Counted from the stretch's first letter, positions 33,211 to 59,731 are shown. The stretch is DNA of 64,000 nucleotides from Deltaproteobacteria bacterium (GCA_016177765.1 JACOUP010000003.1:95384-159383); one strand, 5' to 3'. Notes: a model not told the origin generated them from the sequence alone. Translations and numbers: made by a program.

Positions 33211-33231
33211 GGATGATCCGAAGGATCAGAT

Positions 33232-33247: not shown

Positions 33248-33261
33248 TGATAATGGAGGTG

Positions 33262-36607: not shown

Positions 36608-36612
36608 CCATT

Positions 36613-39401: not shown

Positions 39402-39720
39402 CTGCGAGCTTTCAATCGTCTTTGTTTCCGATCGGGTGATTCAGAAGTATCATGCCCAGTATTTCAATGATTCTACGCCAACAGATGTGATTTCTTTTCC
39501 TTCGGGTGAGCAAAATGGATTTTTAGGGGATATCCTCATCTCCCTCGATACCGCCGCCCGTCAGGCACGGCAGAAGAAACATTCGACCTGGGATGAGGTG
39601 AAACTCCTCCTTGTTCATGGCATTCTTCATCTTCTGGGGTATGATCACCAAAAAAAGAGGGACAGACAAAAAATGTGGCAAAAACAACGGGCCCTGTTAA
39701 GATCAATCGCCAATTTATGA
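39298..39720 (+). CDS. ybeY: rRNA maturation endoribonuclease YbeY
   Basis: PTDVISFP and zinc motif HGILHLLGYDH. Start at ATG 39298 ([10 protein letters not shown]...) overlaps the pgpH-like gene by 104 nt. Confidence 0.9.
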   Translation: MPPINIQNRNRSRKVPARPVKQAVGRLFEGLGLADCELSIVFVSDRVIQKYHAQYFNDSTPTDVISFPSGEQNGFLGDILISLDTAARQARQKKHSTWDEVKLLLVHGILHLLGYDHQKKRDRQKMWQKQRALLRSIANL

Positions 39721-41231: not shown

Positions 41232-42323
41232 CTAAAGAAGAAAAAGAATCGGTCCGATCTTTTACCGAACGGACCTCCAAGCTTCGAGGTCTTCTTTGAC
41301 ATCGCTTCAAAGAAAAAACGTCTTGAGGAAATAGAGCAAACAGCCGCAGCGGCAGGATTCTGGAGCGACAACAAGAAAGCAGAGGCGGTTCTTAAAGAGA
41401 AAAAACTCTTGGGTGATCTTGTTTCCCGGTTCCAAAAACTGGAGAGTGAGATCGAAGAGACGACCCTGCTCCTGGAACTCGGTGCCGAAGGGGCCGATGA
41501 AGATTTGAAAGGGGAGGGGAAGACAAGGCTTGCCGGGATTGAAGCAACCCTCGCCCAATTTGAATTTGAAAGAATGCTCTCCGGAGGGCATGACCACAAC
41601 AGTGCCATCCTTTCGATCAATGCTGGTGCCGGTGGGACGGAGTCCTGCGATTGGGCCGAGATGCTTCTCCGGATGTACCGGATGTGGGCCGACAAACAGG
41701 GGTACAAGAACGAGGTGGTTGACTTCACCCTTGGAGATCAGGCCGGTTTCAAATCGGCAACGGTGACGGTTTCTGGTGATTATGCCTACGGCTATTTAAG
41801 GGCGGAGATCGGCGTCCATCGTCTTGTCCGGATTTCCCCTTTTGACGCCAACAAACGGCGTCATACCTCTTTTGCCTCTGTCTTTGTTTATCCGGATATT
41901 GAAGACGAGATCCAGATTGAGGTCAAGGATTCGGATCTCCGTGTGGATACCTTCCGTTCCAGTGGGGCCGGGGGGCAGAAGGTCAACAAGACCGATTCTG
42001 CGGTTCGTCTGACCCATCTCCCAACGGGGATTGTCGTCGCCTGTCAGAATGAACGGTCCCAACACCAGAACCGGGCGCTCGCCTTAAAGATCCTCAAGGC
42101 CCGGTTGTATGAAGAGGAGATGAAGAAAAAGGACGCGGAAAAGGCCAAGATTGAATCCTCCAAAAAGGATATCGAGTGGGGTTCCCAGATCCGTTCGTAC
42201 GTCCTGCACCCGTACAAGATGGTGAAAGACCATCGGACCGGCGTAGAGGTCGGGGATGCCCAACGGGTCCTGGACGGAGACCTGAATCTGTTCATCCGGC
42301 AATTTCTTCTTCATAATCAATAA
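41228..42323 (+). CDS. prfB: Peptide chain release factor 2 PrfB, requiring a programmed +1 frameshift at 41294-41300
   Basis: Frame 0 reads MTKEEKESVRSFTERTSKLRGLL then TGA (41297-41299). The +1 frame continues DIASKKKRLEEIEQ...FWSD... into the 41409 ORF. SPF (RISPFD) and GGQ (SGAGGQKVN) motifs are present. Confidence 0.93.
41286..41300 (+). promoter_or_regulatory. RF2 autoregulatory +1 frameshift site: SD-like GAGG, then CTT CTT TGA C
   Basis: Same CUU-UGA-C slippery/stop context as the E. coli prfB site, with an internal SD-like element 4 nt upstream. Confidence 0.9.
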
Positions 42324-42324
42324 A

Positions 42325-42372
42325 TTATACGCGTGCCTGGCACCAGACCCCCCCTTTGGTGCCAGGCACGCG
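42325..42372. repeat. Hairpin family TTAYACGCGTGCCTGGCAC-loop-GTGCCAGGCAC(GCG), copy 2, directly after the prfB stop
   Basis: 14-bp stem (42330-42343 / 42359-42372) with a 15-nt loop and no U-tract. The track's ORF start at 42333 runs through it. Confidence 0.8.
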
Positions 42373-42428
42373 GGGAACCTTCGGGATTAAGGCAACTTTT
42401 TGCCCTTTCCGCCGAGAACCGCCCCACG

Positions 42429-45400
42429 ATGCCGGGAGGGGTGACTATCAGCCGCGAGTCTCTTTTGGGCAGGCTCTATTCGGAGCTTTCCGTCCCCGGC
42501 GACCCTTCCCTGATTGCCCTTGTCGATACCTTGGTCCGTCTGACCGGTTCGGATCAGTTTGTTCAGCACCATCCGTCGGATCGGTTCGAGATCACTATGC
42601 CGGATCATTCCCACCGGCTTCTCCGCTATGAGGAACTCCTGCAAGGGCTTGTTGAAAGGTATTACGGTCACAGTCATCCCCCCGAATACCGCGAGAGACT
42701 CTACAAGACCCTTCTTTCCGCGACCAGCCTCGCCGAGTCGGCAATCGCGGGAGGGGGTGAGATCCTTTATTGTGAAGAGCCCCCTTCCTGGGAGCCGTTC
42801 GTCTTTCCCCGTGAGGCGGTGACGATTGTGTTGGTGCCGTCGCCCTCTTCGGAAGAGGGGAGCCGGCGAGCCGCAGGATCTCCTTTTTCAATCTGGGGAC
42901 ATCTCCCTCGCCGGGAGGAGTTGCATGGGGAGGCAGTCCTGGTGGCCGTTCACCAGCAGGGTCCTTCGACCGTGGAATTGGTCGTCAAGACGATCGCCCC
43001 TATCACACATCGGTTTGTTGATGATCCGTCAACGGAGCTCCGCCTCCCGGTTTATGCCGATTCTATAAGACTGACTCGAAGGGGAGGCGATTTTATCCTG
43101 CAAGGCTTTTCCTATCCCCGGAGGGAAGAGATTGAGATCCCTCTTTCGGGAGACTGGGTAGGGGATGATTCCCTCATCCGTAATCTCGGACGGATCCCAC
43201 CCGGAAGCGACCGGTTTCAAAGACTCCTTTATTTATCGGCCGCCGCCAATGCCCTTTTTCTGGAAGGGACTGCCGATGCCCCATCCTTTGAATTTGCCCC
43301 CGGAGAGTTGTTTCTCTCAAGCCGTTTCAGGGGAAAGGTTGTCTCTCTCTTCCCGCTCCTCTCTCGCTCCGAGCCATCCCTTTTGGGGATGATAGAAATA
43401 GGGGCGACGGGGCTCCATACCTTTAGTGTCGCCGTTCCAGGGCGTCTCCGCCTTGTCCCTTCCCGGTCAGGTGATTTACCTGGGGGTGGTTCACCCAAGG
43501 GTGATTCAGGGGTTGTGGGGGAAAGCTGGGAGATTGACTATGAAGCGATCACCCCGTGGGAAGGGGTCACCTTCACCCGTTCCCTTCAACTCCATCCGTC
43601 CCACCCTGTTGTGGCGCGATGGATGAGCCGAGTGACCGGAGGGAGTTGGGGAGCGGCCTCTTATCCCATCTCGGAAGAACAACTCAAGGAACTGGTCGAG
43701 GCGCAGAGACTTTCGGCGGAGGAGATTGAAGTCCAACGACAGGCCAGGGACTGGGTTGATTCCAACTTGGCCGACAAAATAAGGGAGACCGGCTCTCTCC
43801 ACAGGGCTGTTTTGGCGATTATCTATGTGGATCTCGAAGAAGGGAAAAAAGGACCGGGTGGAACAGGAGGGGGTGCCGGAGGAGGGACCGACCCTGAGGC
43901 ATCGCCTCCTCCCCCCTGGATGCTTTCTGGTTTAAGAGATTCCCGACCAGGTGCCTTTCTGGTTGAGGGTGATTCACCCTTGGGTGCCCCACCCAAGGAT
44001 GGTTTTGTTGGAGGAGTGACAACTTCCCCAGGGGAGTCTGGGTCATCCGGTGGGCCTCTTCTGCCATTAGTCGGTCGTCTCATCACCCCGGGTGAGGAGT
44101 TTACCGTTCCCTCCGGGCTGGTCTATCGGTTTTCTCCTGTTGATCAAGGGGCCCTCTGGTTGTTGCCGCCGGACCCCGATGGGGTCGGATTGGAAGGGTA
44201 CCGGCGCGACGAGATCGCCGAAATTCTCTCATTGTTGGAGGGGGAAGAGCCGGTTGTTGCTGTTGCCGGTTGGCGAGGGACCGGCAAGTCAAGGATAGCC
44301 AGAGAGACCCTTCCTGCGGCCTTGAGGGGGAAAGGGAAAAAAGTAGCCACACTGAAGCTTTCGGATGAGGGGGTGGAGGGAGGGGAACTGGAACAGGTTT
44401 CAGCCTTGATGGCCGGGAATCCTGACATTCTGATTCTGGATGAGGCGGCGATCAGACCGGAGGAGAAGGTGTGGCACCGGTTGATCCCTCTGGCATTCCT
44501 CCTTCACCGTTATCTGGAGGGAGGGGGAAGGATTGTCCTTTTTGGGGGGGGCGACTTTCTGACGCCGGAGGAACAGGCTGTTTGGATGCGGTGGACCGGA
44601 TGGACACCCCCCTTGGTCCGACTCGACCTGAAACCGTTCAACCGAAGACAGGCCCACGAGTTCCTGATCCCTCCCGATTCCAGGCTAAGCCCTGCCGATC
44701 AACAGGCCTACGTCCGGCTCGCCTCGCAGTGGGTCCCGCCGTATCCCGGACTTTTGAGGTACGTCCGGTTGGGTCCCGATATCGATCATCTGGAAGATCT
44801 CCACTTGTCACTCTTGTTCCGGTTTCATCCGCTCGATCCCTGGGAGAGGGAGGGAGTCCAAGTTCTGGCATGGCCTCATGGGTCACCCAGTTTTTCAGAC
44901 CTCTCCGTGACCCCTGTCGGTTATCGTCGCGACGACTCCGAGCATCGGGTCCGGCTCCTCTTTCTGATGACCGGCCGGCTCCTTGAATTATTGCGTGAAG
45001 AGACCCGCAGGTACCCTTCCGACGATGGGATCGGTCTGACGCTCGCGGTCGCGGCGACAGAATACAATATCCTGGGGCAAATGCTTGCGGGCGCTCCAGA
45101 CAAGGGTGGTTCACCCAACCTTGGTTTTGAACCGATGTCGGCCCCGGAGGCCCGGCTGGAACTCCGGGGGTATCTGAGCCCTCTCAGGGGGACCAGGGCC
45201 TCCGAGACGGTGGTGCTGGTTTTGGGAACAGAGATCCGTCTCCTCCAGAAAATTTTTAGAGAGACGGAGGAATGTTCCGAAGCTGAACAGATCGTCCAAG
45301 AGAGGATAGGGATCTTGAGGCAACGGTTACAGGAGACACTGGCATCGATTCAAAAAATTGACCAGACTGCCGAGGTTCCTGCCTCTCAAGAGGTTGCCGA

Positions 45401-46415
45401 TCTTGATGGGACTGTGGGTCCGATGGTGAATGCGACGGCCCTTATTGTCCACCGTGACTTCTTGCGGCGACTCCGCCGGGAGCAAAAGGAGACCGCCGGG
45501 CAGTTCAATCCTCTTTTGGACGAAGCGGTTTTTTATACCGTGGGGATGATTGATCAGAATGTCACCCCGCCGTTCCTAAAAAAGGATCTGACCCCCCAAG
45601 AGCGCCGCGCTTATGTTTATTTAAACCGTCGCTATCTGGAGTACCTCGATGCCAGAATGGCCGAGGGGCCTGCCGACCCATTTGACCGATTTTTCCCGAT
45701 TGCCCTTCGCGGCAAAATCAGACGTCTGGTGGATGACCTTTCGATCCTCACAGCGATCGATCAGGAGCCTCTCCCTGAGGGAGTCCTCCACCTGCCCGAT
45801 TACGGGGAAAGCCTAAAACTCTTGGTCTCTCTCTTGCCGCGGCATATCGAGGCGGTTGCTCAACATAGAGAATCCCCGTGGGCCTTGGCGATTGCCCAGG
45901 ATGCCGGCCTTGGCCGGGATGTCTCCTCCTACCTGATTGTGCAAAGGGATCACTTGGCCCGTGCCCGGCGCCGGCTGGCCGCTCTGAACAGGCCTCCTTC
46001 CGGTGGGGGAAAGGGGGGCGGTAGTCTACCGGGAGGCAATCCGGCGGGGGGGATCGTTCCGCCAGTGGATCCCGCTATTGTGCGAGGGATAGCTGAAGCG
46101 ATGGGGCCGGAGTATTTAACAAGGGTTACCTCTTATCCCTCTCCCAATTGGGGAGAGGGTGCCCGAAGGGCGGGTGAGGGGGAGCAACATTTCCCCGGAG
46201 AGGATTCTTTCTCCGTCGCCGTTAGGTATCTTGCCGGAACCCTTCGAGATGACCCGGCGGCCGTGATGGCACTCGACCGAGCAGTCTTGATGATGAGAGA
46301 AACACCAACACCCCTCAGACCGGAAGGAATGGTTCGTTTTGAAGAGAGAAAAGCGGTGGAGGCTGGCCGTGCCAGGGGTGGAGAATTGCTCTGGCGCAGT
46401 AACGCCGCGCGTTAG
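42429..46415 (+). CDS. Giant cytoplasmic P-loop NTPase (STAND/Orc-like ATPase core flanked by about 600-aa unknown regions)
   Basis: About 4-kb uninterrupted ORF. Start tentatively ATG 42429 (downstream of the hairpin, no clear SD). Walker A VAGWRGTGKS (44268-44291), Walker B ILILDEAA (44427-44444), then LDLKPFNRRQAHEFL (hxLxPhxxxEaxxhh motif). No signal peptide. Confidence 0.7.
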   Translation: MPGGVTISRESLLGRLYSELSVPGDPSLIALVDTLVRLTGSDQFVQHHPSDRFEITMPDHSHRLLRYEELLQGLVERYYGHSHPPEYRERLYKTLLSATSLAESAIAGGGEILYCEEPPSWEPFVFPREAVTIVLVPSPSSEEGSRRAAGSPFSIWGHLPRREELHGEAVLVAVHQQGPSTVELVVKTIAPITHRFVDDPSTELRLPVYADSIRLTRRGGDFILQGFSYPRREEIEIPLSGDWVGDDSLIRNLGRIPPGSDRFQRLLYLSAAANALFLEGTADAPSFEFAPGELFLSSRFRGKVVSLFPLLSRSEPSLLGMIEIGATGLHTFSVAVPGRLRLVPSRSGDLPGGGSPKGDSGVVGESWEIDYEAITPWEGVTFTRSLQLHPSHPVVARWMSRVTGGSWGAASYPISEEQLKELVEAQRLSAEEIEVQRQARDWVDSNLADKIRETGSLHRAVLAIIYVDLEEGKKGPGGTGGGAGGGTDPEASPPPPWMLSGLRDSRPGAFLVEGDSPLGAPPKDGFVGGVTTSPGESGSSGGPLLPLVGRLITPGEEFTVPSGLVYRFSPVDQGALWLLPPDPDGVGLEGYRRDEIAEILSLLEGEEPVVAVAGWRGTGKSRIARETLPAALRGKGKKVATLKLSDEGVEGGELEQVSALMAGNPDILILDEAAIRPEEKVWHRLIPLAFLLHRYLEGGGRIVLFGGGDFLTPEEQAVWMRWTGWTPPLVRLDLKPFNRRQAHEFLIPPDSRLSPADQQAYVRLASQWVPPYPGLLRYVRLGPDIDHLEDLHLSLLFRFHPLDPWEREGVQVLAWPHGSPSFSDLSVTPVGYRRDDSEHRVRLLFLMTGRLLELLREETRRYPSDDGIGLTLAVAATEYNILGQMLAGAPDKGGSPNLGFEPMSAPEARLELRGYLSPLRGTRASETVVLVLGTEIRLLQKIFRETEECSEAEQIVQERIGILRQRLQETLASIQKIDQTAEVPASQEVADLDGTVGPMVNATALIVHRDFLRRLRREQKETAGQFNPLLDEAVFYTVGMIDQNVTPPFLKKDLTPQERRAYVYLNRRYLEYLDARMAEGPADPFDRFFPIALRGKIRRLVDDLSILTAIDQEPLPEGVLHLPDYGESLKLLVSLLPRHIEAVAQHRESPWALAIAQDAGLGRDVSSYLIVQRDHLARARRRLAALNRPPSGGGKGGGSLPGGNPAGGIVPPVDPAIVRGIAEAMGPEYLTRVTSYPSPNWGEGARRAGEGEQHFPGEDSFSVAVRYLAGTLRDDPAAVMALDRAVLMMRETPTPLRPEGMVRFEERKAVEAGRARGGELLWRSNAAR
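43470..43512. repeat. GGGTG(A/G)TTCACCCAA motif cluster (degenerate copy + full copy + half copy)
   Basis: GGTGATTTACC (43470-80), GGGTGGTTCACCCAAGG (43484-43500), GTGATTCAGGGG (43501-12). Encodes GDLPGGGSPKGDSGV. Confidence 0.7.
43967..43998. repeat. GGGTGATTCACCC-TTGGGTG-CCCCACCCAAGG motif copy
   Basis: Contains the nested palindromes GGTGATTCACC and CACCCTTGGGTG. Encodes GDSPLGAPPKD. Confidence 0.7.
45102..45124. repeat. AAGGGTGGTTCACCCAACCTTGG motif copy
   Basis: Encodes KGGSPNLG, in the same frame as the other giant-ORF copies. Confidence 0.7.
46137..46180. repeat. CCCTCTCC / GGAGAGGG / GGGTGAGG palindromic element, copy 3, in frame inside the giant NTPase gene
   Basis: CCCTCTCCC-aattg-GGGAGAGGG, TG, GCCC-gaa-GGGC, GGGTGAGG. 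Same layout as 17514-17558. Encodes YPSPNWGEGARRAGEG. Confidence 0.8.
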
Positions 46416-46488
46416 AGGGTGACAAGAAAATTGAAAAAAGGCTTGCGGGAAGCCCTCCCTTTCTATACGCCTTGTCAGCAAGAGGCGT

Positions 46489-49400
46489 ATGATGAGAAGG
46501 CAGAGGCTTCTTTCAATTGTCGGGCTTTTCTTCAGTATCCCTTTATTTTTCTCCTGTGCCTTTGATCAAGGGGATCCCTTTCAATTTGGGGCCGGTGGCG
46601 CCGCCAGTCCTGGGGGGGACGAGAGGAACATTAATAATGCCTGTCAGTCGGATGCCGATTGTGCCGGGGCCGTTTGTGATTTGATCTCCGGTCTCTGTTC
46701 TGTCTCTCTTCCCCCGGTAACACCAAAGTTTGGTTGTGGGGCGGATGCCGATTGCCCGGGGGGGCAGGTCTGTGACCTGGGAACTTTCCAGTGCCGCGCT
46801 CCAAAGACCACCTGTCCGGGGGTCTCCTGCCGGGAGGATCAATCGCTGGATACTGCGACCTGTCGTTGCATCAACACCTGCCCTGTTGATTTTAATGCAA
46901 CGCTTGTCCTCAAGGGGGATTCTCCGGTGGAGGACAAATACGACATCCCGGCAGACTGTCGGCTTTACGGGCTCGACCTGAATGAGCCTTTCGACGGGCC
47001 TTACCCTCCCACCCCCCAGGAACACCGGGATCTCTATTGTTGCAACAATCCTGATCCTGACCTGAGCATGAGTTACCCTTATGGTTCCCGGGATTGCGAC
47101 GAAACACCGAGCCCGGCGAAGAAGATCAATACGATCCGCTATTTTCCGGACAAGCCGATGAAACTGAAGTTTGATCTTTCGGATCCGGCCCGTTGCCGCG
47201 TTTTTCTGGAGGCGAGGGATTTTCCGACCTATAGGATCGCTAACACCGCCATGGATGCCGCTTTAAAGATTGATGCCGGACAGGGGGAGGGGGATTTTGA
47301 GGGGCTGACAGCCCAAGGGAGTTGTCGTGAGGAAGGGGGAGTTATTCATATTGAGGAGTTCGAGGGACTCCACTTCCGGATCCGTTTCTATGATCGCCTC
47401 ACGGATACCAGTTTTCCGATACTTGATCCCGAAGCGCCGTTTACCGGGGGGACAATTTTCCCCCCCCAGGTGGTTCCCCCTTTTGAGGACGACCCGGGAA
47501 CCCCCATTCAGGATCAGGAGGGGCTCAGCCTGACGACCGGATCGGTGACGGTCCCGCCGGGGACGCCTCCTCCGGTGAGATTCAGCGATGTCGGGCCCAA
47601 GACGACAACCGGTTCTCCTCTTCAAAATGGTCATCTGAAACTGGTTACCGGTGTCCCGCTTTCCAATGAGGCCAGTCCCCCTTTGGGTGGGAAGCTCTCT
47701 GTCGCCCTTGCCGGGGCGGCCCTCGCGGCGGATATTGAGGGAGAGGTTACTCATCCGGCGACCGATGAACCGGTAATGACTCTGGAGGGGATCAAAAATA
47801 ATTGTGAGGTTCTTCCCTCCGGCCCCGATCTCGCCATTTTTGCAAAACATAGTTGGTCTGCGGGGGAGACGACAACGGCCGGGGAAGAGGGGATTTCTCT
47901 CGCCGGAAACCCCAGTCAAGGTTTTTCAGGAACGGTGACCTTCCGACAGAGTCCGTTTATCAGGCGGACTAACGAAGAGGCAGTGAATCAGGCCTATGCC
48001 AATTCTGAGGTGCGTCGCCGCTTTGAATCCGAGGAAACCATCCTCATCACCAACGAGGCGGATCATACGCCGCTGGCGCTGGACCCGACAATAACGCCGG
48101 CAGATGGCGCCTTTCAACTGGCGGGTGAGGGGACAACGCCGTCACTGGAGGTGGGGGGACTCCTGCCACTGGTCCTCTCCTTCCGGCCGGTTGAGGGGGC
48201 GCCGGGATGCACGACAGAGGGGGTCTGTCAGGCGACCCTCACGCTGGCGGCCAATCGGTTGACACTTGTCCTGCGGGCCACCGCGAGCGTCCGGAGCGGA
48301 CGACTCTCCATCTCGGAGGTCCAGAAAGGGGCGTCTTATAACGATGACAGTTACGGGTCCAATCTCGGCAGAGTCCTGTCGGCACCGGCCCCCGTCAATG
48401 AAAACAGTTATTTTGGCCTCTATCCGGACGAGACGACCCTGCAGGGGACCTGCCGGAGCAAGGTCTACCGTGTTTCCAATACAGGGGTCCTCAATATCGG
48501 GTCGGTCGGTCTGCCGATAATGGAGGCGACCGGGTATTTTACGAGGGGACAGATCCGTCAGGGAGAGGTTTTTAGGACGGCACCCCCCATTTCAGGGGGC
48601 AGTTTACCGGCCCGGTCAATCACCCCTGACGGAAAAACCGATATTTTCTTTTACCTCCGGTTCTGCCCGACGACCCTTCCCAACCTGAATCCGATCAACT
48701 CCCAGTATGGGGTCAGTTCCAACGCCGGTTCATTTTCATTCAATGTTGAGGGGAAGCCGGAGAAAAAGGCGGATGCGATCCCGCAGATTTATATCAGTGA
48801 CTTCGAGGCCTATTCCGGGGCCGATTGTACCGATAGCCGGAGCGGAATCCCAAAAACAGCCGACCTTGTGGCCCCTGATGGAAAATGCCTCTATGCGGTT
48901 CGTGAGGTGATCGATCCGGTCACTTCTAAAATCAGTGGAGAATTCAGCCTTCGTTCCAACAGGGTGACAAGGGATGTTTATGTTGTGAACAGGAAGGCCA
49001 AGAATGGCGCCGACCGGCTTCGTGTGAATCAGATTATCTTTGGTGGCGCGCACGACCAGTTTTCTTTCACTCCCGGAACGGCCCTCCCCTTTGATGTCAG
49101 TCACTGTCCCGATGCTGGCAATGGGGGGACTCGTTGTCCCATTGGGGCCTCTTGTGATGAGACGCCGACAACAGGGTGGTGCCGCAAGATCGGGACGATC
49201 ACCTTTGGGTCCGATCCGGCCGGTCCCTTTGGGATTGTCAGCCATGATTTCAAATTGGTCACAAAGACGGTCCGGGCCTCGGGAGAGGCCGATCTCCCGG
49301 AGACTGAAATGGCCTTTAAAGGGGCGAATGGGGCACCGAGCGGTTTCAAGACATTCCATGTCGGTCGCCTTTTTGCCGGTTTTCCCAACAAACTGGCGGG

Positions 49401-50604
49401 CGCCGTCGGGATCGCCTCCAGCGTCACCCAGGCACAGGTTATCGGGGCACAACGCTCGGATATCCCGGGTGCTTCCCTCGAAGAGGATGTTGACCGTTTT
49501 TCAATCCTGGTGGAATTGAGGCCGGAGGCCGGGGTCATTTTGATTCCCGGTGTTTATACCCCGGTGACTGAGAGTTTCACCCCTCCCAATTACACCCGCC
49601 GGAGTTCCGAAGGGATCAGTCTCTTCAATGCGCCGGGTTCCAGCGCTGACCGCCCCAATGAATATCTTTATTCTTTTCAATGTCGTTCTGCCACCTGTCG
49701 TTATTTCTCCGCCTTTCTTGCCGATCGCGGCCTTGTCCTGAAGGGCTCGGATTCTTGTCGTCGTTCCTTTTATGGTCAGAATACGACCCCCGGAGAGGCC
49801 TGTTATAATGACGGGTCCCGCGGTTTTTATGGCCTGTATGCCGGTGATCTGAGTCCGGTGGCTGGTTTGAACCCCAAGGTCGAATCGATGGCCAACCAGT
49901 TGAGGAGTTCCCTGTCCCAGGACGATGCCAGGATAGCGGGGTTCTTTGACCCTGTAACAGGCGAACTGCTCTTCAGCAACAACATCGTTGTCCGGCTCTT
50001 CAGTCCGGAAGTCCCTCTCCTGGATGCCACGGATGCGGACGTGACGATTGAGCTCTCTCTCACCACTGGATGCGTCGATACGGAGCTTGTCCCCCTTTAT
50101 ACCGGTATCCCGGGCTCTTATTTCCCCTTGGCTGTGGGACAGGTGCCAGGCCGTTATGATGCCGGGGAGTCAAGCATCCTGAATCCACGGATCAACTCTC
50201 TGATCGTGAATGCCAGTGAGGGCAGCCCTGGGCTCAGTTATTATGGCCCGAACCCGCTCCCCTATTATGTGGCCGGCGCCGCAGGAGAGACGACCGCGAA
50301 TCCCTCTTCCTGCCGGCCGGGGATCCTTCACGGGAGGCGGATGTGGGGGGGATCCGGCCATGAGGAGAACCTGGATCATACCGGGACACTGGATAAGGAC
50401 CGGTCCAATCCCGATTCGGAGACCAACCGTTTCCGGAACCCTAATTTTGATCTTGCCGGGGTAGGGGTCATGAGGTCGAATCAGGCGACGGTACACAATC
50501 GTCCCATTTACCTTGTCATCAAGGGGTGTCTTGGCGAGAGCGAGACCGGACCCGATGGGACGCCCAGGCCGGTTTCTCCCGGTGCTGACCCCGATTGTCA
50601 GTAG
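46489..50604 (+). CDS. Giant secreted Cys-rich protein / putative lipoprotein (1371 aa)
   Basis: MMRRQRLLSIVGLFFSIPLFFSC is a signal peptide with a non-canonical lipobox. Two CxxDxDCxGxxCDxxxGxC modules plus further Cys pairs. No catalytic motif recognised. Confidence 0.75.
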   Translation: MMRRQRLLSIVGLFFSIPLFFSCAFDQGDPFQFGAGGAASPGGDERNINNACQSDADCAGAVCDLISGLCSVSLPPVTPKFGCGADADCPGGQVCDLGTFQCRAPKTTCPGVSCREDQSLDTATCRCINTCPVDFNATLVLKGDSPVEDKYDIPADCRLYGLDLNEPFDGPYPPTPQEHRDLYCCNNPDPDLSMSYPYGSRDCDETPSPAKKINTIRYFPDKPMKLKFDLSDPARCRVFLEARDFPTYRIANTAMDAALKIDAGQGEGDFEGLTAQGSCREEGGVIHIEEFEGLHFRIRFYDRLTDTSFPILDPEAPFTGGTIFPPQVVPPFEDDPGTPIQDQEGLSLTTGSVTVPPGTPPPVRFSDVGPKTTTGSPLQNGHLKLVTGVPLSNEASPPLGGKLSVALAGAALAADIEGEVTHPATDEPVMTLEGIKNNCEVLPSGPDLAIFAKHSWSAGETTTAGEEGISLAGNPSQGFSGTVTFRQSPFIRRTNEEAVNQAYANSEVRRRFESEETILITNEADHTPLALDPTITPADGAFQLAGEGTTPSLEVGGLLPLVLSFRPVEGAPGCTTEGVCQATLTLAANRLTLVLRATASVRSGRLSISEVQKGASYNDDSYGSNLGRVLSAPAPVNENSYFGLYPDETTLQGTCRSKVYRVSNTGVLNIGSVGLPIMEATGYFTRGQIRQGEVFRTAPPISGGSLPARSITPDGKTDIFFYLRFCPTTLPNLNPINSQYGVSSNAGSFSFNVEGKPEKKADAIPQIYISDFEAYSGADCTDSRSGIPKTADLVAPDGKCLYAVREVIDPVTSKISGEFSLRSNRVTRDVYVVNRKAKNGADRLRVNQIIFGGAHDQFSFTPGTALPFDVSHCPDAGNGGTRCPIGASCDETPTTGWCRKIGTITFGSDPAGPFGIVSHDFKLVTKTVRASGEADLPETEMAFKGANGAPSGFKTFHVGRLFAGFPNKLAGAVGIASSVTQAQVIGAQRSDIPGASLEEDVDRFSILVELRPEAGVILIPGVYTPVTESFTPPNYTRRSSEGISLFNAPGSSADRPNEYLYSFQCRSATCRYFSAFLADRGLVLKGSDSCRRSFYGQNTTPGEACYNDGSRGFYGLYAGDLSPVAGLNPKVESMANQLRSSLSQDDARIAGFFDPVTGELLFSNNIVVRLFSPEVPLLDATDADVTIELSLTTGCVDTELVPLYTGIPGSYFPLAVGQVPGRYDAGESSILNPRINSLIVNASEGSPGLSYYGPNPLPYYVAGAAGETTANPSSCRPGILHGRRMWGGSGHEENLDHTGTLDKDRSNPDSETNRFRNPNFDLAGVGVMRSNQATVHNRPIYLVIKGCLGESETGPDGTPRPVSPGADPDCQ

Positions 50605-50686
50605 GGTTTAACACAGCGCCATAAGAGTCATCGACAAATTTCATAAATATCTATATAAATCAGTAGGATGGTAACAGATTTTTTTT

Positions 50687-50716
50687 TAGAATATTCTTGC
50701 ACCTCCCCCTAGAACA
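50687..50716 (+). promoter_or_regulatory. Possible sigma-70 promoter TTGCAC-N18-TACAAT in the AT-rich 162-bp spacer
   Basis: -35 at 50687-50692, -10 at 50711-50716, 51 nt upstream of ATG 50767. Pattern match only. Confidence 0.35.
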
Positions 50717-50766
50717 GAGTTACAATAAACCCATATTATTTATCTAAATGAAAGTAATGGGGGTAT

Positions 50767-53700
50767 ATGAATTCCATATCTCTTAGACGGCGGGTTACCG
50801 GTTGGCGAGGGGTCATTGCGCTCGGTCTCCTGGTCTCTCTCCCCTTCCTGGGTTGGTTTCTGTTTCACTCATCGCTTGCTGTCAGACAGGCCAATGCGGC
50901 GCTTCAGTCAGTTCCCTTTTATTTTATTGAAAATCAGGGGGAGGTTACTCCCACCATCCGCTATTTTGCCAGGGGAAGGGATTTTCAGATCGGTTTCGCC
51001 GACTCCGGCATCCAGTTGGCGCTCCCAGATCAGCGTCTTGCCCTCTCTCCTGTCCAGCCGGAAAAAGGGCTGAAGATCAGAGGGACAGAAAAACAAAAAG
51101 CGACTGTCAACTTCTTCAGGGGAAACGATCCGGCAAAATGGAGGAGGGATCTTCCGACCTATGCCGGGGTCGTCTATGAAAACCTCTGGTCCGGGATCGA
51201 CTGGCATGTTGCCGGGAAGGGAAAAACACTGAAGTACGAATTTGTCGTGAAACCGGGAGCGGATCCCCGCCAGATCAAACTGGCCTACCAGGGGGTTGAG
51301 AGGCTTGTCCTCTCCGATGCCGGCGAGTTGGTTGTGAAACTCCGCTCGGGAGAACTCCGGGACGCCAAGCCGACCGTTTATCAGGAAAAGGGAGGGGAGA
51401 AAATCCCGGTCGAGGCCCGGTTTGCATTGATCAATGCCCGGATCTATGGTTTTGCCCTGGGTCCCTATGATCCCCAGTTGCCCCTGATCATCGATCCCTC
51501 GCTCTATTTTGCAACCTATCTGGGAGGTGACAGCTGGGACTTTCCCGATGATATGGTCATTGACGGGAGCGGCAACATCTATGTGACCGGTTATACCACC
51601 TCCACCGATTTTGCGACCGTCGGGGCCTATGACACCAGCCAGAATGGAAGTGACGATATCTTTGTCGCCAAATTGGCGTCGAACGGCCAGAGCCTCACTT
51701 GGTGCACCTACATTGGGGGGTCCTCCGGTGATGGCGGCAAGGCGATCGCCGTGGATTCCTCCGGCCGTGCCTACGTTGCCGGTTACAGCTATTCAACCGA
51801 CTTCCCGACCGCTTCCGCCTATCAAGGCTCAAAAGGGGGGAGCGGGACGACCACAAGGGATGCGGTTGTGTTCAAGCTGAATGCCAGCGGGAGCAGTCTC
51901 CTTTATTCAACCTATCTGGGGGGAACCACTACCGCCCACGATAGCGCCCATGGCATTGCGGTGGACAATAATGGAATCGCCTGGGTGGCGGGGAAGGCTG
52001 CATCCACCGATTTTCCAACAACGGCAGGCGTCTATGATACGAGTTGGAATGGGGGGACAGACTTCTTTGTGGCCAAGCTGGACACCGCACAAAGCGGAAG
52101 TTCAAGTCTTTCCTGGTCAACCTATGTGGGGGGGACCAATCCCGACGAGATGGACTGGTTGAAGGGGGGGATGGCGGTTGACGGGAGCGGCAACGTCTAC
52201 GTAACGGGGGAAGCGAAGGCAGGATTTCCAACGACCGTCGGTGCTTATGATACAAGCTACAATGACACGGGATCGAGCTGGGATGTCGTTGTCTTTAAAC
52301 TGAACTCCAGCGGGACCAGTCTTGTCTATTCGACCTATCTCGGGGGGACGGCCATTGATGTCCCCTTTGGCCTCACCCTTGATTCAAGCAATCAGGCCTG
52401 GGTCACCGGGTACACCAGCTCCTCCGGTTTCCCGACGACGGTCGGGGCCTATGATCGAACCCGCAAGGCTTCAGCCTACTCTGCGTTTGTTGCCGCCTTG
52501 AATGCCGATGGAACCGGTCTCGTCTTCGGAACCTTCCTGGAAGGGGCCTCCGGTTATTATGATTATGGGTATGATATCGCCATCGATTCAACCGGCAGGA
52601 TCCATGTCGCCGGGTCGACCGCTCCGGCAACCGGATCCTCCGCCTTCCCGACAACGGCGGACGCCTACGATCGGACAACCAATGGGAGCGACGACTGGTT
52701 TTATACGCGATTCAATGCCGCCGGTTCGTCCCTCGTCTATTCCAGTGTCTTTGGAACATCGGGTCAGGATACCTGCAAGGCGATGGCGATTGATGCCACG
52801 GGAGACATTGTCTATCTGGCCGGCTCGATGGCCTCCGGTTTTACCACCCAGAGTGCCTACCGCTCCAGCGGGACCTCCTATGAAGGGCTTGTTATCAAGA
52901 TAGGGCCGAACACCGCCCCTGTTGCCAACGCCGGTTCCGACCAGAGTAATATCCCGGAAGGGGCGACCGTCACACTGAACGGGTCGGGCAGTTCCGATGC
53001 TGATGGGGACTCTCTGACCTACAGCTGGTCCTGCACCGTCAACTGCACCGGTGTTTCTCTTTCGAGTAGCACCGCCGTCAGCCCGACATTTACCGCCCCC
53101 GATGTCTCCCTCAACACCGCGATTACCTTGTCACTGACCGTCAATGACGGGATCGCCAACTCCTCCGCCGATACGGTGAACATTAATGTGAATGCCAGGC
53201 CGCTGGCCAATAACCAGACGGTGACCACCAATGAAGACACCGCCGTTTCCATTACCCTCAGCGCCTCCGACCCTAACAGCGAAACGCTGACTTATGCCGT
53301 GGTCACCTGGCCGACCCAAGGTTCTTTAAGCACCCCCTTCACAGGGAGTCCGGCCCGGATTACCACCTATACGCCGAATGCCAACTACAACGGGGCGGAC
53401 AGTTTTACCTTTTGGGTGAGCGATGGTCTTCAGGAGAGCAATGTCGCCACTGTTTCTATCAGTATTGGTGCTGGCAACGACCCGCCAACGGCGAATGCCG
53501 GATCAGACCAGTTAAACGTCAGCCCGGGGACGACGGTGACCCTGAATGGGACCGGGAGTTCCGATCCGGACGGGGACAGCCTGACCTACTCCTGGACCCA
53601 GACCTCCGGCCCAACCGCCACCCTCTCCAGCACCACGGCGGCCCAGCCGACCTTTACGGCCCGGAGGGCGGGAACATTGGTCTTCAGTCTCATTGTCAAC

Positions 53701-55830
53701 GACGGGACCATCGGCAGTAATCCGGATTCGATCACCGTCACGGTGACTAATGTGGCCCCCGTCGTCAATGCCGGGAGTGATGACAACTGTGAACCGGGAT
53801 CAACCGTTCAACTTGCCGGAAGCGCCACGGATACCAATAATGATACACTGACCTACGGCTGGGCGCTTGTCTCGGGACCGGGCGTCACATTTTCCAATAT
53901 GGCGATTGCCAATCCCACGGTCACGGTCCCGATGTACTATCCCCTCGGAACGATGATTACCCTGAGACTGACCGTCTCGGACGGTGTTGGTGGTTCCAGC
54001 TCCGACCTGGTGGTCTTGACCTACGGGGCCAAAGCCCCTACCGGGAGCCTGGGGGGCTCTTTTACGAGTGATGGTGTCTTCAACTTCGGGAGTAATTCCT
54101 TTACCGCTTACAGCAGTGATACCATGTCCTACAGCTGGAACGTTGTCAGTTGCACCGATCCCAATGCCACATTTGACAGCTCCAGCACGGACAAACCGAG
54201 CCTGACAGCGATCAAGGTGGGGACCTGTCAGGTGCGTGTCTGTGTCACGGACGGTTCGAGCCAGCAAAACTGTTTCACCCATACGGTGACAACCCCCAAC
54301 TATGTTCCCAAGATCACAAAAATTAAGGGGGAGATCCGGAGTGAATTGCGGCCTGGCGAGGTGATTGATATTGACACCCTTGGCATCTCCTCGGTTTCCG
54401 ACTCCAATCAGGACACCATCACCACCACCTGGGCCGTGAATTCCGGCCCGGCCACTCTGCAGGTCAGCAACGGAAAGATTGACTGTCGCAACTATCCATG
54501 TCCTCGGGGGACCTATACCTTCCAGCAAGTCTCTGTTGATCCGAACGGTGGGACCGCCCATGAGACCGTCAATTTCATCTTTCCCAACAATGCCCCGGCC
54601 AAGCCGACACTGAAGGAGAGCCACTTCAAAGGGGCGGATGTCGTCCTGCAGGGGGACAGCGTCAAATTCCGAAATTTCTCAAAGGATGTGAGCCTCCGTG
54701 ATGTCGTCTTTGGCGATGATGACGGGGACAACCTGGCCTACACCTGGACCCTCAACAAACCGGTCGGTCTCAAGAAGAGTGATGGGGCGTTTGGTTTTGT
54801 GAGGGCCGGTTCCGGCCTGTTGGACCTGAAGGCGAGGCTCCCCGGAACGTATACCCTGACGGTAGAGGTGAGCGATGGTTACGGCGGGGTGACCTCCAAG
54901 AATATCACCGTCGTCATCCCTCTTCCTGAGGTGGACGACCTGCCGATTGAGGTGAAATCCCGGACTCCGGTCGGTTCCACGGAAGAGGTGGAGGGAACCG
55001 TTGACTCCCCCGTCTTCCCGATCGTCTCCGTGAATGGGGTTGAGGCGGAGGTGACCCTGGTGGCCGAGGGGACAAGCACTTTGAGCGCCATGACCCTGGA
55101 AACCGGTGACTTCAAGGGACAAACCACATCCGGCACGGATGAGACCTACGATAGCTATAGCTTTAAGGCCTCCGGTGTCCCTTCTTCCAGCGAGCTGGAT
55201 ATTGAGGTGGCGACCGATGTTGACGGGGAGGTTGTCGCGTTGGTCAGCAAACAGTTTACAGACAGCTCCTCAACCGGCACCGGTTCTTCTGATGGTGGGG
55301 GGGGAGATTCAGATTCTCCCTCTTCCGGGGGTTGCGGACTTAGCCAGTCGTCATCGCCCACTGCCCAATCGGGCCCTTCTTCAACGAAGCCAGCCGCTAC
55401 CGGCGGGGGTTATTCCGGAGGGACCCTCTCGGCGATGACGGCGGAGGAAACAACAACCTCTCCTTCGGGTGATATCTCCCTGGATGAATCATCCGTGAAG
55501 AAATCGGATCAAAAAGAGAGTTTTTCGAGAGGAAGGACGCCATCCATTGTGGCGGTGAAGGAGGGGGAGACAGCCTCTACCAAGGGTGATTCACCCAATG
55601 GGGTATCACCCAAGGGTTCTTTCAAGCAACCGTCGGCCCCTTTTAGTGAGGGTTTTTCGGGGGGAACCACAACGGTGGCTATGGCGGCAAAGGGGTCAAA
55701 AACACCGTCGGCCGTAACCCTGTCAGCGACGACCGATTCAGAAAGATCCCTGAAACCGGCAGTTCTTCTCCTCCTGGCCCTCGGGCTGCTGGTCCTTGGA
55801 CTGTTTTCCCTTTCAGTCCGTAGAGATTAA
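50767..55830 (+). CDS. Giant surface protein (1687 aa): SBBP beta-propeller repeats, about four PKD-like domains, cadherin/VCBS-like Ig domain, Ser/Thr/Gly-rich tail, C-terminal TM helix + RRD
   Basis: N-terminal signal/anchor. VPFYFIENQGE... followed by repeated YSTYLGG...G.AVD.SG..YV.G.T.S.DFPT (SBBP). ANAGSDQ...V.LNG.GSSD.DGDSLTYSW x3 and related. NEDTAVSITL...YTPNANYNGADSFTFWVSDG. C-terminus is LKPAVLLLLALGLLVLGLFSLSVRRD*. Confidence 0.85.
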   Translation: MNSISLRRRVTGWRGVIALGLLVSLPFLGWFLFHSSLAVRQANAALQSVPFYFIENQGEVTPTIRYFARGRDFQIGFADSGIQLALPDQRLALSPVQPEKGLKIRGTEKQKATVNFFRGNDPAKWRRDLPTYAGVVYENLWSGIDWHVAGKGKTLKYEFVVKPGADPRQIKLAYQGVERLVLSDAGELVVKLRSGELRDAKPTVYQEKGGEKIPVEARFALINARIYGFALGPYDPQLPLIIDPSLYFATYLGGDSWDFPDDMVIDGSGNIYVTGYTTSTDFATVGAYDTSQNGSDDIFVAKLASNGQSLTWCTYIGGSSGDGGKAIAVDSSGRAYVAGYSYSTDFPTASAYQGSKGGSGTTTRDAVVFKLNASGSSLLYSTYLGGTTTAHDSAHGIAVDNNGIAWVAGKAASTDFPTTAGVYDTSWNGGTDFFVAKLDTAQSGSSSLSWSTYVGGTNPDEMDWLKGGMAVDGSGNVYVTGEAKAGFPTTVGAYDTSYNDTGSSWDVVVFKLNSSGTSLVYSTYLGGTAIDVPFGLTLDSSNQAWVTGYTSSSGFPTTVGAYDRTRKASAYSAFVAALNADGTGLVFGTFLEGASGYYDYGYDIAIDSTGRIHVAGSTAPATGSSAFPTTADAYDRTTNGSDDWFYTRFNAAGSSLVYSSVFGTSGQDTCKAMAIDATGDIVYLAGSMASGFTTQSAYRSSGTSYEGLVIKIGPNTAPVANAGSDQSNIPEGATVTLNGSGSSDADGDSLTYSWSCTVNCTGVSLSSSTAVSPTFTAPDVSLNTAITLSLTVNDGIANSSADTVNINVNARPLANNQTVTTNEDTAVSITLSASDPNSETLTYAVVTWPTQGSLSTPFTGSPARITTYTPNANYNGADSFTFWVSDGLQESNVATVSISIGAGNDPPTANAGSDQLNVSPGTTVTLNGTGSSDPDGDSLTYSWTQTSGPTATLSSTTAAQPTFTARRAGTLVFSLIVNDGTIGSNPDSITVTVTNVAPVVNAGSDDNCEPGSTVQLAGSATDTNNDTLTYGWALVSGPGVTFSNMAIANPTVTVPMYYPLGTMITLRLTVSDGVGGSSSDLVVLTYGAKAPTGSLGGSFTSDGVFNFGSNSFTAYSSDTMSYSWNVVSCTDPNATFDSSSTDKPSLTAIKVGTCQVRVCVTDGSSQQNCFTHTVTTPNYVPKITKIKGEIRSELRPGEVIDIDTLGISSVSDSNQDTITTTWAVNSGPATLQVSNGKIDCRNYPCPRGTYTFQQVSVDPNGGTAHETVNFIFPNNAPAKPTLKESHFKGADVVLQGDSVKFRNFSKDVSLRDVVFGDDDGDNLAYTWTLNKPVGLKKSDGAFGFVRAGSGLLDLKARLPGTYTLTVEVSDGYGGVTSKNITVVIPLPEVDDLPIEVKSRTPVGSTEEVEGTVDSPVFPIVSVNGVEAEVTLVAEGTSTLSAMTLETGDFKGQTTSGTDETYDSYSFKASGVPSSSELDIEVATDVDGEVVALVSKQFTDSSSTGTGSSDGGGGDSDSPSSGGCGLSQSSSPTAQSGPSSTKPAATGGGYSGGTLSAMTAEETTTSPSGDISLDESSVKKSDQKESFSRGRTPSIVAVKEGETASTKGDSPNGVSPKGSFKQPSAPFSEGFSGGTTTVAMAAKGSKTPSAVTLSATTDSERSLKPAVLLLLALGLLVLGLFSLSVRRD
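55582..55616. repeat. AAGGGTGATTCACCCAATGGGGTATCACCCAAGGG motif copy in the tail of the surface protein
   Basis: Encodes KGDSPNGVSPKG. Shares the exact 15-mer GGGTGATTCACCCAA with 16410-16424. Confidence 0.7.
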
Positions 55831-55915
55831 CTCCCCCTTTTCCCTTGACTAAAGAACTTCCCTGCCGATAGACTCGCCCCGCTTTTTTATCAATTTCTTC
55901 AGTAATTCTCGGCCA

Positions 55916-57265
55916 ATGGACGAAACCAATAAGCTCATTCAGGAACGTCTGAAAAAACTGGAGGCGCTTCGGGCCGCAGGGATCAATCCGTACCCGAACA
56001 ACCTTTGTCCCACCCATACTCTTGGGCAGATTCGGCAGAAGTATGACCTCCTTTCCAAAGAGGATCTGGAGAAGGTTGCCGACAGATTTTCCGTGGCGGG
56101 GCGGGTGATGATGGTTCGCTCGTTCGGCAAGGCCTCGTTTGCGGTCCTTCAGGACCGGAGCGGTTTACTGCAACTCTTTTTCCAGAAGAACAGCCTGACG
56201 GAAAAGGAGTTTCAACTCTTTCAAACGATTGACCGCGGCGATTTTCTGTTTGTAACAGGGCCTCTGTTTCGGACCAAGACGGGGGAACTGACGCTTCATG
56301 CCGAAACCTTCCGGCTGGCGGCCAAATCGCTCCAGCCATTGCCGGAGAAGTGGCACGGGCTCTCAGATGTTGAGATTCGTTATCGCCAGCGGTATGTCGA
56401 TCTGATCGTCAATGAAGAAGTCCGCGAGGTTTTTAAAAAGCGGTCGCAGATCATCCAATTTTTGAGGGAGTTTTTGGTGGCGCGGGAATTTTTGGAGGTG
56501 GAGACGCCGATGATGCACCCGATTGCCGGGGGGGCCACTGCAAAACCGTTTATCACCCACCACAACACGCTTGACAGGGATCTCTATCTGCGGATCGCCC
56601 CGGAACTGTACCTTAAAAAACTGGTCGTCGGCGGTTTTGAAAGGGTCTTTGAAATCGGCCGGAATTTCCGGAACGAAGGGATCAGCACCCAGCATAATCC
56701 GGAATTCACGATGGTGGAGTTCTACCAGGCGTATGCGACTTACGAAGACCTGATGACACTGACCGAAGAGCTCCTTCAATTTTTGGCAAAAAAACTGGGC
56801 AAGACAGAATTGATCTATCAGGGGACGACGATCAGCCTGAAGAGTCCTTTCAAGCGGATTACCTACGCCGAGATGGTAAAGATTGGGGAAGACAAGCTGG
56901 TGCAGCCAACCTTTGTCACCGATTTCCCGGTTGAAGAGTCACCGCTTGCGAGAAAAAATGATAAAAACCCGGGTGTGGTAGATCGTTTTGAGTTGTATAT
57001 TACCGGACGGGAGATTGCCAACGCCTTTTCCGAACTGAATGACCCTCTGGACCAACGGGAGCGCTTCGAGGCCCAGATGGAGAAAAGGAAAAAGGGGGAT
57101 CTGGAGGCGATGGCTTTTGATGACGACTTTATCCGTGCCCTGGAAGTCGGGCTCCCCCCAACGGCGGGGGAGGGGATCGGGATCGACCGGCTCGTGATGC
57201 TCTTGACCGATCAACCCTCGATTCGCGACGTCATCCTTTTTCCCCTTTTGAGGCCGGATCCATGA
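55916..57265 (+). CDS. lysS: Lysyl-tRNA synthetase (class II) LysS
   Basis: OB-fold N-domain ([21 protein letters not shown]) and class II motifs ([52 protein letters not shown]). 449 aa, slightly short. Confidence 0.93.
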
Positions 57266-58470: not shown

Positions 58471-58502
58471 AAACTATTTGGACATGGTGAGTTTATCGAA
58501 CC

Positions 58503-59729: not shown

Positions 59730-59731
59730 AA

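Follow-up and report, generated by a model that had tools for sequence, protein, structure and literature searches.

Three very large genes between prfB and lysS in an uncultivated groundwater bacterium: probably an old interruption by unrelated genes rather than a dedicated system

Do three very large genes that follow each other on one strand between two housekeeping genes form a system, or have they come to be neighbours independently? This question is raised by a 64,000-nucleotide (nt) stretch of DNA from an uncultivated groundwater bacterium (Deltaproteobacteria bacterium, GCA_016177765.1, JACOUP010000003.1:95384-159383), called the window in the following, in which the genes g1, g2 and g3 separate prfB, coding for release factor 2 (RF2), from lysS. 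The list of open reading frames (ORFs) gives the plus-strand order prfB, g1, g2, g3 and lysS. A first-pass annotation of the sequence had let prfB end at 42323 and lysS start at 55916, with only three same-strand genes in between and gaps of 73 nt (g1/g2, 46416-46488) and 162 nt (g2/g3, 50605-50766), and all of these positions proved exact. It had further proposed that the product of g1, a cytoplasmic nucleoside triphosphatase (NTPase), is coupled to two surface proteins encoded by g2 and g3, and this proposal was not upheld. The 13.5 kilobases (kb) are probably an old, lineage-specific interruption holding three unrelated genes, and not a dedicated three-gene system.

The location of homologues in other genomes carries this reading. 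Genes of the g1 family were found in eight loci (L090, L092, L093 and L095-L099) and homologues of g2 in two, never beside the other partners. In an all-against-all BLAST, the g1-family loci proved free of g2 and g3 homologues, the two g2-homologue loci contain no g1-like or g3-like gene, and none of 160 loci retrieved via lysS or lnt encodes a homologue of g1, g2 or g3. The coupling proposal fails because homologues of the three genes are nowhere neighbours, and it was on such neighbourhood elsewhere that the first-pass annotation had itself made the proposal depend.

A word-indexed search of 5.8 billion proteins with g1, and with a 20-sequence alignment (A1), gave no matches, which is probably due to low-complexity words in the query. 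By an exhaustive HMMER search of 1.84 billion cluster representatives, 22 homologues of g1 were recovered, each of which spans one module. The N-domain (residues 3-490; 42435..43898, plus strand) is homologous to P0008, P0009, P0014 and P0020 (phmmer E 1e-15 to 1e-46). Homologues of the central ATPase module are P0005, P0006/P0026, P0007, P0010, P0011, P0012 and P0013 (twice), as well as stand-alone or truncated proteins of 250-517 amino acids (aa; P0015-P0019, P0021 and P0023-P0025), and the all-helical C-domain (residues 827-1193; 44907..46007, plus strand) has P0004 as its sole homologue (E 1.7e-51), encoded in the metagenome-assembled genome (MAG) Q7S98. Since each module matches different, separately encoded proteins, g1 is apparently a fusion of modules that are encoded as separate genes in related MAGs. 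Homologues with a named source stem from the MAGs HYS22, Q7S98 (GCA_030649435.1) and Q7S00, the exception being P0025 from an uncultured bacterium, and the family would accordingly be described as multi-copy, modular, fast-evolving and present mainly in three related groundwater MAGs.

In the eight loci, the family genes are scattered among housekeeping genes. P0010 and P0006 of HYS22 follow genes for a Fic-domain protein and a permease and precede an ACT-domain gene, a 1534-aa ORF and an IS200-type transposase gene (L090), and in the same MAG, P0014 and a 570-aa ORF stand between pyrG and rpoN (L093). P0005 of Q7S98 is preceded by UbiA, DUF420 and MFS transporter genes and followed by a HAD hydrolase gene (L092), P0007 of the same MAG is followed by a 917-aa ORF and a thiolase gene (L095), and P0016 adjoins mtgA and efp (L099). 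The IS200-type (Y1_Tnp) transposase gene of L090, at 16636-17319, and the Fic-domain gene flank P0010 (2350 aa) and the 1534-aa orphan.

One of these loci bears directly on the history of the block. Locus L096 of Q7S98, the closest relative, agrees in gene order with the window from the YjbQ-like gene over phoH, 7TMR-HD, ybeY and lnt through prfB, which is 84% identical, and continues with a fatty-acid desaturase gene, a 475-aa family member and P0008. The latter, a homologue of the g1 N-domain, lies 2.7 kb downstream of prfB and runs into the contig end. Because of this synteny and the position of P0008 after lnt-prfB, it can be concluded that the slot 3' of prfB held a g1-family gene before the source organism and Q7S98 diverged. 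With a g1-family gene in the post-prfB slot of the closest relative as well, g1 is probably a neighbour of g2 and g3 by history.

Gene order in other species was scored with lysS as query, which gave 80 species-representative loci, 72 of them with enough upstream sequence. The whole lnt-prfB-lysS-lolC order was contiguous in 20 loci of other species, and for this reason the 13.5 kb read as an insertion relative to a widespread order. The earlier claim of an insertion into a conserved pair stands in so far as prfB lies 27-306 nt upstream of lysS in 35 of the 72 loci; the pair is far from universal, however, as prfB was absent within 10 kb of lysS in another 33. Nor does adjacency extend to the nearest kin: prfB and lysS are split in both of the closest relatives with data, L096 (Q7S98) and L002. 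In metagenome loci retrieved with lnt, prfB came after lnt in 27 of 58, and lysS was the next gene after prfB in only 1 of 22. The best match in this lnt scan had 41% identity versus 59% for Q7S98, and neither closer relatives nor homologues of g1, g2 or g3 were found in it. The closest lysS in the species collection was 62% identical (Rifle-site MAGs labelled Deltaproteobacteria). In L002 (4139-9968; MAG RIFCSPHIGHO2_01_FULL_43_49), ftsH-folP is followed by two helical ORFs of 1426 and 469 aa and then by lysS; these ORFs have no Pfam match, are unrelated to g1, g2 and g3, and make up another orphan insertion on the same side of lysS.

Overall GC content is higher in the block than around it (0.55-0.58 versus about 0.52-0.54). 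Its GC content at third codon positions (GC3, 0.60-0.66) and its correlation with housekeeping genes in relative synonymous codon usage (RSCU; r 0.81-0.87) equal those of the neighbouring genes, and the surplus GC is confined to codon positions 1 and 2, which is due to proteins rich in Gly, Pro and Ala. From this native codon usage, the interruption is judged to be old and typical of the lineage, as opposed to a fresh island. On the same ground, recent horizontal transfer and a mobile element were ruled out as its origin, and also for lack of the usual accessories: there was no integrase among the genes checked, no flanking direct repeats were seen around the block, and no tRNA gene or Rfam feature lies in the window.

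A single functional module, in which the ATPase g1 would control display, assembly or sensing of g2 and g3, is unlikely on this evidence, as neither the eight g1-family nor the two g2-family loci hold the other partners and the g2 family has conserved partners of its own. The shared strand and the short gaps of 73 and 162 nt would suit such a module, as would the absence of a canonical terminator between the genes, an arrangement that is identical in assemblies of several sequencing runs, and the predicted cytoplasmic RRD tail of g3, which could be reached from inside the cell. To these can be added a 19-nt partly palindromic motif (GGTGATTCACCCAAGGGTG), found in g1 (43485-43503 and 43968-43993; two or three copies) and once in g3 (55585-55603), with four matches versus 0.03 expected and none in the 64 kb outside these two genes; it encodes G-D-S-P-K/L/N-G in disordered stretches. 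The g1 protein, on the other hand, has no membrane segment or recognisable envelope domain, and further large orphan ORFs lie among housekeeping genes in the same window. Signals in the DNA also argue against one unit. The spacer between g2 and g3 (50605..50766) is AT-rich (32% GC) and contains a weak promoter-like site (TTGCAC-18 nt-TACAAT, 50697-50726), which was missed by a stricter consensus scan, and g3 may have its own promoter there. A promoter scan found another such site (TTGACT-18 nt-TAGACT, 55845-55874) upstream of lysS, and a very stable hairpin resembling repetitive extragenic palindromes (REP) separates prfB from g1. Separate transcription of the genes is inferred from these features.

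Some points weigh against the preferred reading of three unrelated genes. Sampling is thin, with homologues in three related MAGs only, and since contigs L096 and L098 end inside genes, a g2-like or g3-like gene could possibly lie beyond the contig end, downstream of the g1-like gene of Q7S98. The three genes run in one direction with little space between them, and a terminator scan detected no convincing intrinsic terminator between them, so that co-transcription is possible. The 19-nt motif is a weak link between g1 and g3 at the DNA level. An envelope-related role of g1 is possible, too, given that no function is known for its N- and C-domains or for g2.

What kind of protein is g1? The gene (42429..46415, plus strand) encodes a predicted cytoplasmic multi-module protein of 1328 aa. 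A longer ORF of 1360 aa could be read from a GTG at 42333, but the true start is almost certainly the ATG at 42429, because the GTG sits inside the hairpin and the N-termini of homologues (MPPPVRTIESRFL and MAPNVHTIPRNML) align with that of g1 (MPGGVTISRESLL) at this ATG. The gap to prfB is then 105 nt. With this start, the length of about 1328 aa, the lack of a signal peptide and the central P-loop described in the first-pass annotation were all recovered: Walker A and B motifs are present, and there is no hydrophobic segment (maximum KD19 of 1.42).

The AAA+ P-loop ATPase module (residues 553-823; 44085..44897, plus strand) was delimited by its Walker motifs, a 19-sequence alignment (A2) and an AlphaFold2 model. 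Walker A (GWRGTGKS, residues 614-621, 44268-44291) and Walker B (ILILDEAA, residues 667-674, 44427-44450) are conserved throughout A2, as is characteristic for AAA+/ASCE ATPases, and a family motif K-P-[LF]-N-x-x-Q-A follows at 44622-44666. Pfam AAA_16 remained below its gathering threshold (21.6 versus 32.6 bits) and covered the Walker A region only (residues 624-666 of the 1360-aa ORF). AlphaFold2, run with the 19-sequence alignment, predicted an alpha/beta core with a helical lid, with a pLDDT in the core mostly above 90, and Foldseek searches of the PDB returned FtsH, RuvB-like proteins, DnaA (1l8q, 2hcb), Orc/Cdc6 (2qby, 5zr1), RFC, IstB (5bq5, 8q3w) and Hda, all of them AAA+ proteins, with probabilities up to 1.00, E-values of 1.6e-3 or weaker and TM-scores that are low since the 789-residue model was queried whole. 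Viral structures gave generic helicase and AAA+ matches only, and sequence searches of the PDB with g1 and with the A2 profile nothing beyond generic P-loop matches. Structure prediction and Foldseek, which the first-pass annotation had recommended for all three proteins, yielded for the core of g1 a modelled fold that suggests a generic AAA+ likeness, with no particular family favoured and nothing specific to the envelope; the model of g2 was unusable.

With its GxxGxGKS Walker A and hhhhDE Walker B motifs, the module resembles the ATPases of the Orc1/Cdc6, DnaA, IstB/DnaC, RFC and AAA_16 type, and its confidently modelled core and lid may be like those of initiators and clamp loaders. The motif after strand 5, K-P-[LF]-N-x-x-Q-A-x-E-x-L, recalls the L-x-P-L-x-x-x-E of the Orc/Cdc6 and STAND families. 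In contrast to such initiator or STAND ATPases, g1 reaches no family model threshold, the A2 profile finds only P-loop-level matches in the PDB, no winged helix or other DNA-binding domain is recognised in g1, and the module is flanked by domains of 490 and 370 aa without known relatives. For the N-domain, there was no Pfam match and a profile search of the PDB gave nothing; the C-domain, modelled by AlphaFold2 as long helices with moderate confidence, showed no Pfam match, repeat family or winged helix. A search of g1 against NCBIfam was empty, and searches of the literature gave nothing relevant to the g1, g2 or g3 proteins. Judged by its sequence, g1 contains a new variant of the AAA+ ATPases that curated models do not cover, in a new architecture.

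The tripartite layout of an N-domain, an AAA_16-like NTPase and a helical C-domain recalls STAND proteins, and g1 might in principle be the NTPase core of a STAND-like or conflict system, with the N-domain as effector or sensor, the helical C-domain as sensor, and g2 and g3 as unrelated neighbours. The family is multi-copy and fast-evolving, entries of the NLR type are among the weak Foldseek matches, and the NTPase is recombined in relatives with other regions: one with a ParB-like DGHHR motif in P0007 and P0010, and a Rossmann-like, methyltransferase-resembling one in P0005, P0010, L096_475 and L098_391. Such a role is nevertheless improbable. The two regions were recognised by inspection of the sequences, and a Pfam search at E up to 1 with the family modules and their partner proteins yielded only ParBc_2 at E = 0.27 and no methyltransferase model, so the ParB-like and methyltransferase-like readings (DGHHR; VVGAG...DVVDP) should be taken as motif impressions. 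AAA_16 stays below its Pfam cutoff, the closest structures are those of AAA+ initiators and clamp loaders and not of NLR or Avs proteins, and neither a nuclease or protease nor any other effector domain could be detected in g1. Size (about 1300 aa), a central P-loop and the combination in relatives with DGHHR and a possible methyltransferase-like fold are also reminiscent of BREX- or DISARM-type defence ATPases, but g1, g2 and g3 match no model of such systems, with no hit in PADLOC-DB 2.0 at E up to 0.1, and partner genes of these systems are lacking. A known anti-phage defence system was ruled out by the absence of a PADLOC match. The statement of the first-pass annotation that the block corresponds to no named system is in agreement with these searches, as none emerged from Pfam, NCBIfam or PADLOC.

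Another peculiarity of the g1 family is the sharing of terminal peptides. In Q7S98, nine proteins whose bodies are unrelated have the same ending, a Gly-rich linker and a C-terminal tail of the form [IV]-S-Y-R-[SG]...D-G-S-E-L-L-G...G-E-[IT]-V...L-P-R. A second tail, D-P-A...M-G-P-E-Y...F-S-V-A-V, is typical of HYS22-type members and common to g1 (46008..46412, plus strand; tail alignment), P0026, P0010 and P0014, and P0005, P0010, L096_475 and L098_391 begin with one and the same type of leader, M-[AS]-C-D/N-P/R-x-x-Q-S-C-P, at the N-terminus. Loci with such proteins are L092, L095, L096, L097 and L098 in Q7S98 and L090 and L093 in HYS22. Judging from these alignments, the shared termini could serve as signals for targeting or have arisen by gene conversion. 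In g1, the tail is degenerate, and a REP-like palindrome (CCCTCTCCCAATTGGGGAGAGGG, 46137-46159) is inserted in frame, giving the peptide SPNWGEGARRAGEGE. Four independent short-read contigs begin at this palindrome (46150-46156), and P0022, a database entry, consists of this repeat translated in tandem. A peptide resembling SPNWGEGARRAGEGE is encoded in lolC (57472-57510), where a related in-frame insertion may have occurred.

If the g1 family were the cargo or the effectors of some undescribed route for export or packaging, addressed by the Gly-rich linker and tail and in some cases by the leader, this would account for one tail on nine unrelated bodies, for the second tail type in g1, P0026, P0010 and P0014, and for the leader in four proteins; g1 would in this case not be a regulator residing in the cytoplasm. 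It is a doubtful explanation, since no secretion-system gene adjoins any member in the loci examined, g1 itself has no leader and only a degenerate, repeat-interrupted tail, and gene conversion between paralogues or a common domain for oligomerisation could explain the termini just as well. A broader version would see the post-prfB slot as a conserved landing site for an undescribed superfamily of modular proteins, counting AAA+ ATPases, the ParB-like DGHHR region, the Rossmann-like region and the orphan domains as modules, with the shared termini as export, packaging or assembly signals, g1 as a fused member and g2 and g3 as a possible surface end; there is only a slight chance that this holds.

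The second gene, g2 (46489..50604, plus strand), codes for a 1371-aa cysteine-rich protein with a signal peptide and lipobox (46489-46557) followed by Cys-rich repeats (about 46636-46893). Of its 39 cysteines, 33 are invariant in an alignment of the three family members (P0001-P0003), and LFFSC, LGGC and WASC fall into one alignment column of the three homologues, the lipobox cysteine being invariant. The only hydrophobic segment is N-terminal. The first-pass description of a Cys-rich protein with signal and lipobox was thereby supported, and g2 is a predicted bacterial lipoprotein. The 5.8 billion proteins searched contained only two homologues, with 51% (HYS22) and 40% (Q7S00) identity. No Pfam or PDB match was obtained for g2, and an AlphaFold2 model of residues 131-1330 from the 3-sequence alignment had a mean pLDDT of 29. 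The N-terminal repeats, C-x-S/A-D-A-D-C-x-x-x-x-C-D-x-x-x-G-x-C, resemble the myxococcal Cys-rich repeat TIGR04201 (E 6e-4), and the HYS22 homologue has a weak match to Dickkopf_N (E 9e-4); both are, however, below cutoff and concern fewer than 50 of the 1371 residues, while the other approximately 1200 residues match nothing.

Both homologues of g2 belong to another conserved trio, in which the g2 homologue is followed by a protein of approximately 300 aa and then by a Cys-rich lipoprotein of 1391 aa (L081, 10001-20361; L083, 1374-8475). None of the trio proteins has a Pfam match, and no homologue of the trio partners was found in the window. The flanks differ: one locus has coaD-like...GAF-histidine kinase-purH and the other a comEC-like gene, the GAF-histidine kinase gene after the trio being that of HYS22. 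Within the limits of these sequence comparisons, g2 represents an orphan family, and a three-gene "system" is not supported.

The third gene, g3 (50767..55830, plus strand), codes for an envelope protein of 1687 aa, as indicated by Pfam domains and hydropathy. A signal or anchor (residues 10-39) is followed by DUF7948 (53-244), SBBP beta-propeller repeats (about 250-715), an array of PKD/Big_9/cadherin-like domains (about 716-1400), a Ser/Thr/Gly-rich stalk and a membrane helix (1659-1686) that ends in RRD. The SBBP/PKD/cadherin-like character and the terminal helix named in the first-pass annotation were confirmed: E-values in Pfam are 6e-54 for DUF7948, 3e-49 for the K319L-like PKD domain, 6e-36 for SBBP and 2.5e-32 for Big_9, and the scores of 183.7, 122.6, 165.3 and 112 bits for DUF7948, SBBP and PKD/Big_9 exceed by far their cutoffs of 20.5-27. 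Matches in NCBIfam concern repeat regions only and are all below cutoff. We know of no established function of DUF7948. By its domain content, g3 resembles giant SBBP/PKD/cadherin-like surface proteins such as the Leptospira LipL53 family and can be classed as an ordinary member of the DUF7948-SBBP-PKD/cadherin surface proteins with a C-terminal membrane anchor. It is not a LipL53 equivalog (66.6 versus 400 bits) and, unlike SBBP-repeat lipoproteins, is anchored by a C-terminal membrane helix and not by lipid.

A stalk, a hydrophobic helix and a basic cluster (RRD) also occur in the PEP-CTERM, MYXO-CTERM and GlyGly-CTERM sorting signals, and a PKD region similar to that of g3 is found in models of M36 peptidases depending on myxosortase or rhombosortase, which g3 matches far below cutoff. 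In contrast to C-terminal sorting signals, the helix of g3 lacks a preceding PEP, GG or Cys motif. The C-terminus had no match among the NCBIfam sorting-signal models, and no exosortase, rhombosortase or myxosortase was detected among the genes examined in the window. A role of g3 as substrate of one of these three sortases is therefore not supported, with no signature motif, no model match and no sortase among the window genes examined.

Three rather different proteins would thus be encoded in the block. We infer that g1 is a soluble cytoplasmic fusion of an orphan N-domain, an AAA+ module of the Orc/Cdc6-DnaA-IstB/STAND-like type, an orphan helical domain and a family tail, which most likely acts as an ATP-driven switch or remodeller on a cytoplasmic partner and not on the envelope; the role of its family may lie in conflict or regulation. 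g2 would be a disulfide-rich protein that is acylated and sorted by the general Lnt/LolCDE pathway, which is coincidentally encoded next door, and g3 a beta-propeller/Ig-like protein of the adhesin type, displayed at the envelope on a long Ser/Thr-rich stalk and tethered by its C-terminal membrane helix. Both g2 and g3 probably contribute to the cell surface, to adhesion or to surface architecture.

The position of the block in the genome depends on the assembly. Over 33146-42338 and 42343-60604, the window is matched with 100% identity by independent short-read contigs of several sequencing runs, and because of this match the order g1-g2-g3-lysS-lolC is not an assembly chimera and is reproducible across independent assemblies. 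All independent contigs break inside the REP-like hairpin right after the prfB stop codon, at 42338 on one side and 42343 on the other. This hairpin (42330..42372) has a stem of 17 base pairs (GCGTGCCTGGCACCA...TGGTGCCAGGCACGC) and a loop in which a C7 stretch occurs, and it lacks a U-tract; the fold of 42318-42432 has -54.3 kcal/mol (z = -7.25). The breaks suggest micro-heterogeneity or a sequencing or assembly problem at this place. With every contig stopping there, the prfB|g1 join has as its evidence the source assembly and the gene order shared with L096, and no independent contig confirms it. A mis-join at a dispersed repeat, with the three genes located elsewhere upstream of lysS, would fit these breaks and the second copy of the hairpin family (25465-25510, arm at 25470; arms GCGTGCCTGGCAC / GTGCCAGGCAC), but it is very improbable, as the contigs from both sides end at most 5 nt apart in the same copy, whose loop is unlike that of the other, as a g1-family gene stands just after lnt-prfB in the closest relative, too, and as g1-g2-g3-lysS-lolC is contiguous in independent assemblies.

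The boundary genes are unremarkable. prfB (41228..42323, plus strand) has a start codon that overlaps the stop codon of lnt and a canonical CTT TGA C +1 frameshift site at about 41294-41300, with the in-frame TGA at 41297-41299; the ORF ending at 42323 represents the C-terminal part of RF2 with the PCRF and RF-1 domains (Pfam). lysS (55916..57265, plus strand) was assigned by tRNA-synt_2 (Pfam). Upstream of the block lie murJ, a 968-aa orphan secreted protein gene, a YjbQ-like gene, phoH, 7TMR-HD, ybeY, lnt and prfB, and downstream of lysS follow lolC, lolE, lolD, bamA and skp (gene calls on contig L084; OmpH match). The block is accordingly placed in a neighbourhood of envelope biogenesis (murJ, lnt, lolC, lolE, lolD, bamA and skp; 31504-33060 and 39675-63324). 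That g2, a giant lipoprotein gene, is found between genes for lipoprotein N-acylation and lipoprotein export is probably a coincidence.

If the reading of three unrelated genes is true, uncultivated lineages like this one pepper conserved housekeeping clusters with giant, fast-evolving, lineage-restricted genes, and co-direction with tight spacing alone does not make a system. The value of the block would then lie in its parts. One of these is an AAA+ family outside curated models, known mainly from three related MAGs, where it has recombined with further modules. Another is g2, a lipoprotein of 1371 aa in which 33 cysteines are invariant, for which no fold could be predicted and whose detectable relatives are confined to two MAGs. 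To these come the shared terminal peptides on unrelated proteins, which hint at an undescribed targeting or recombination mechanism. No long-standing question has yet been made testable by these findings.

Further large ORFs without a Pfam match are located among housekeeping genes (murJ/phoH and leuS) in the same window. These are the 968-aa secreted Thr/Gly-rich orphan (33247-36153, plus strand), a 721-aa orphan (22092-24257, minus strand) and a 453-aa orphan (24296-25657, minus strand) with five 84-nt tandem repeats (24356-24814). Orphan insertions between housekeeping genes thus appear to be a habit of the source genome and not peculiar to the prfB-lysS locus. Besides the hairpin family described above, in which the loops of the two copies differ, a second palindromic repeat (GGTACCGGGTACCTTTTGGCCAAAAGGTACCCGGTACC) occurs at 4119-4160 and 25571-25612, 21 kb apart and with 98% identity, and is probably a REP-type element.

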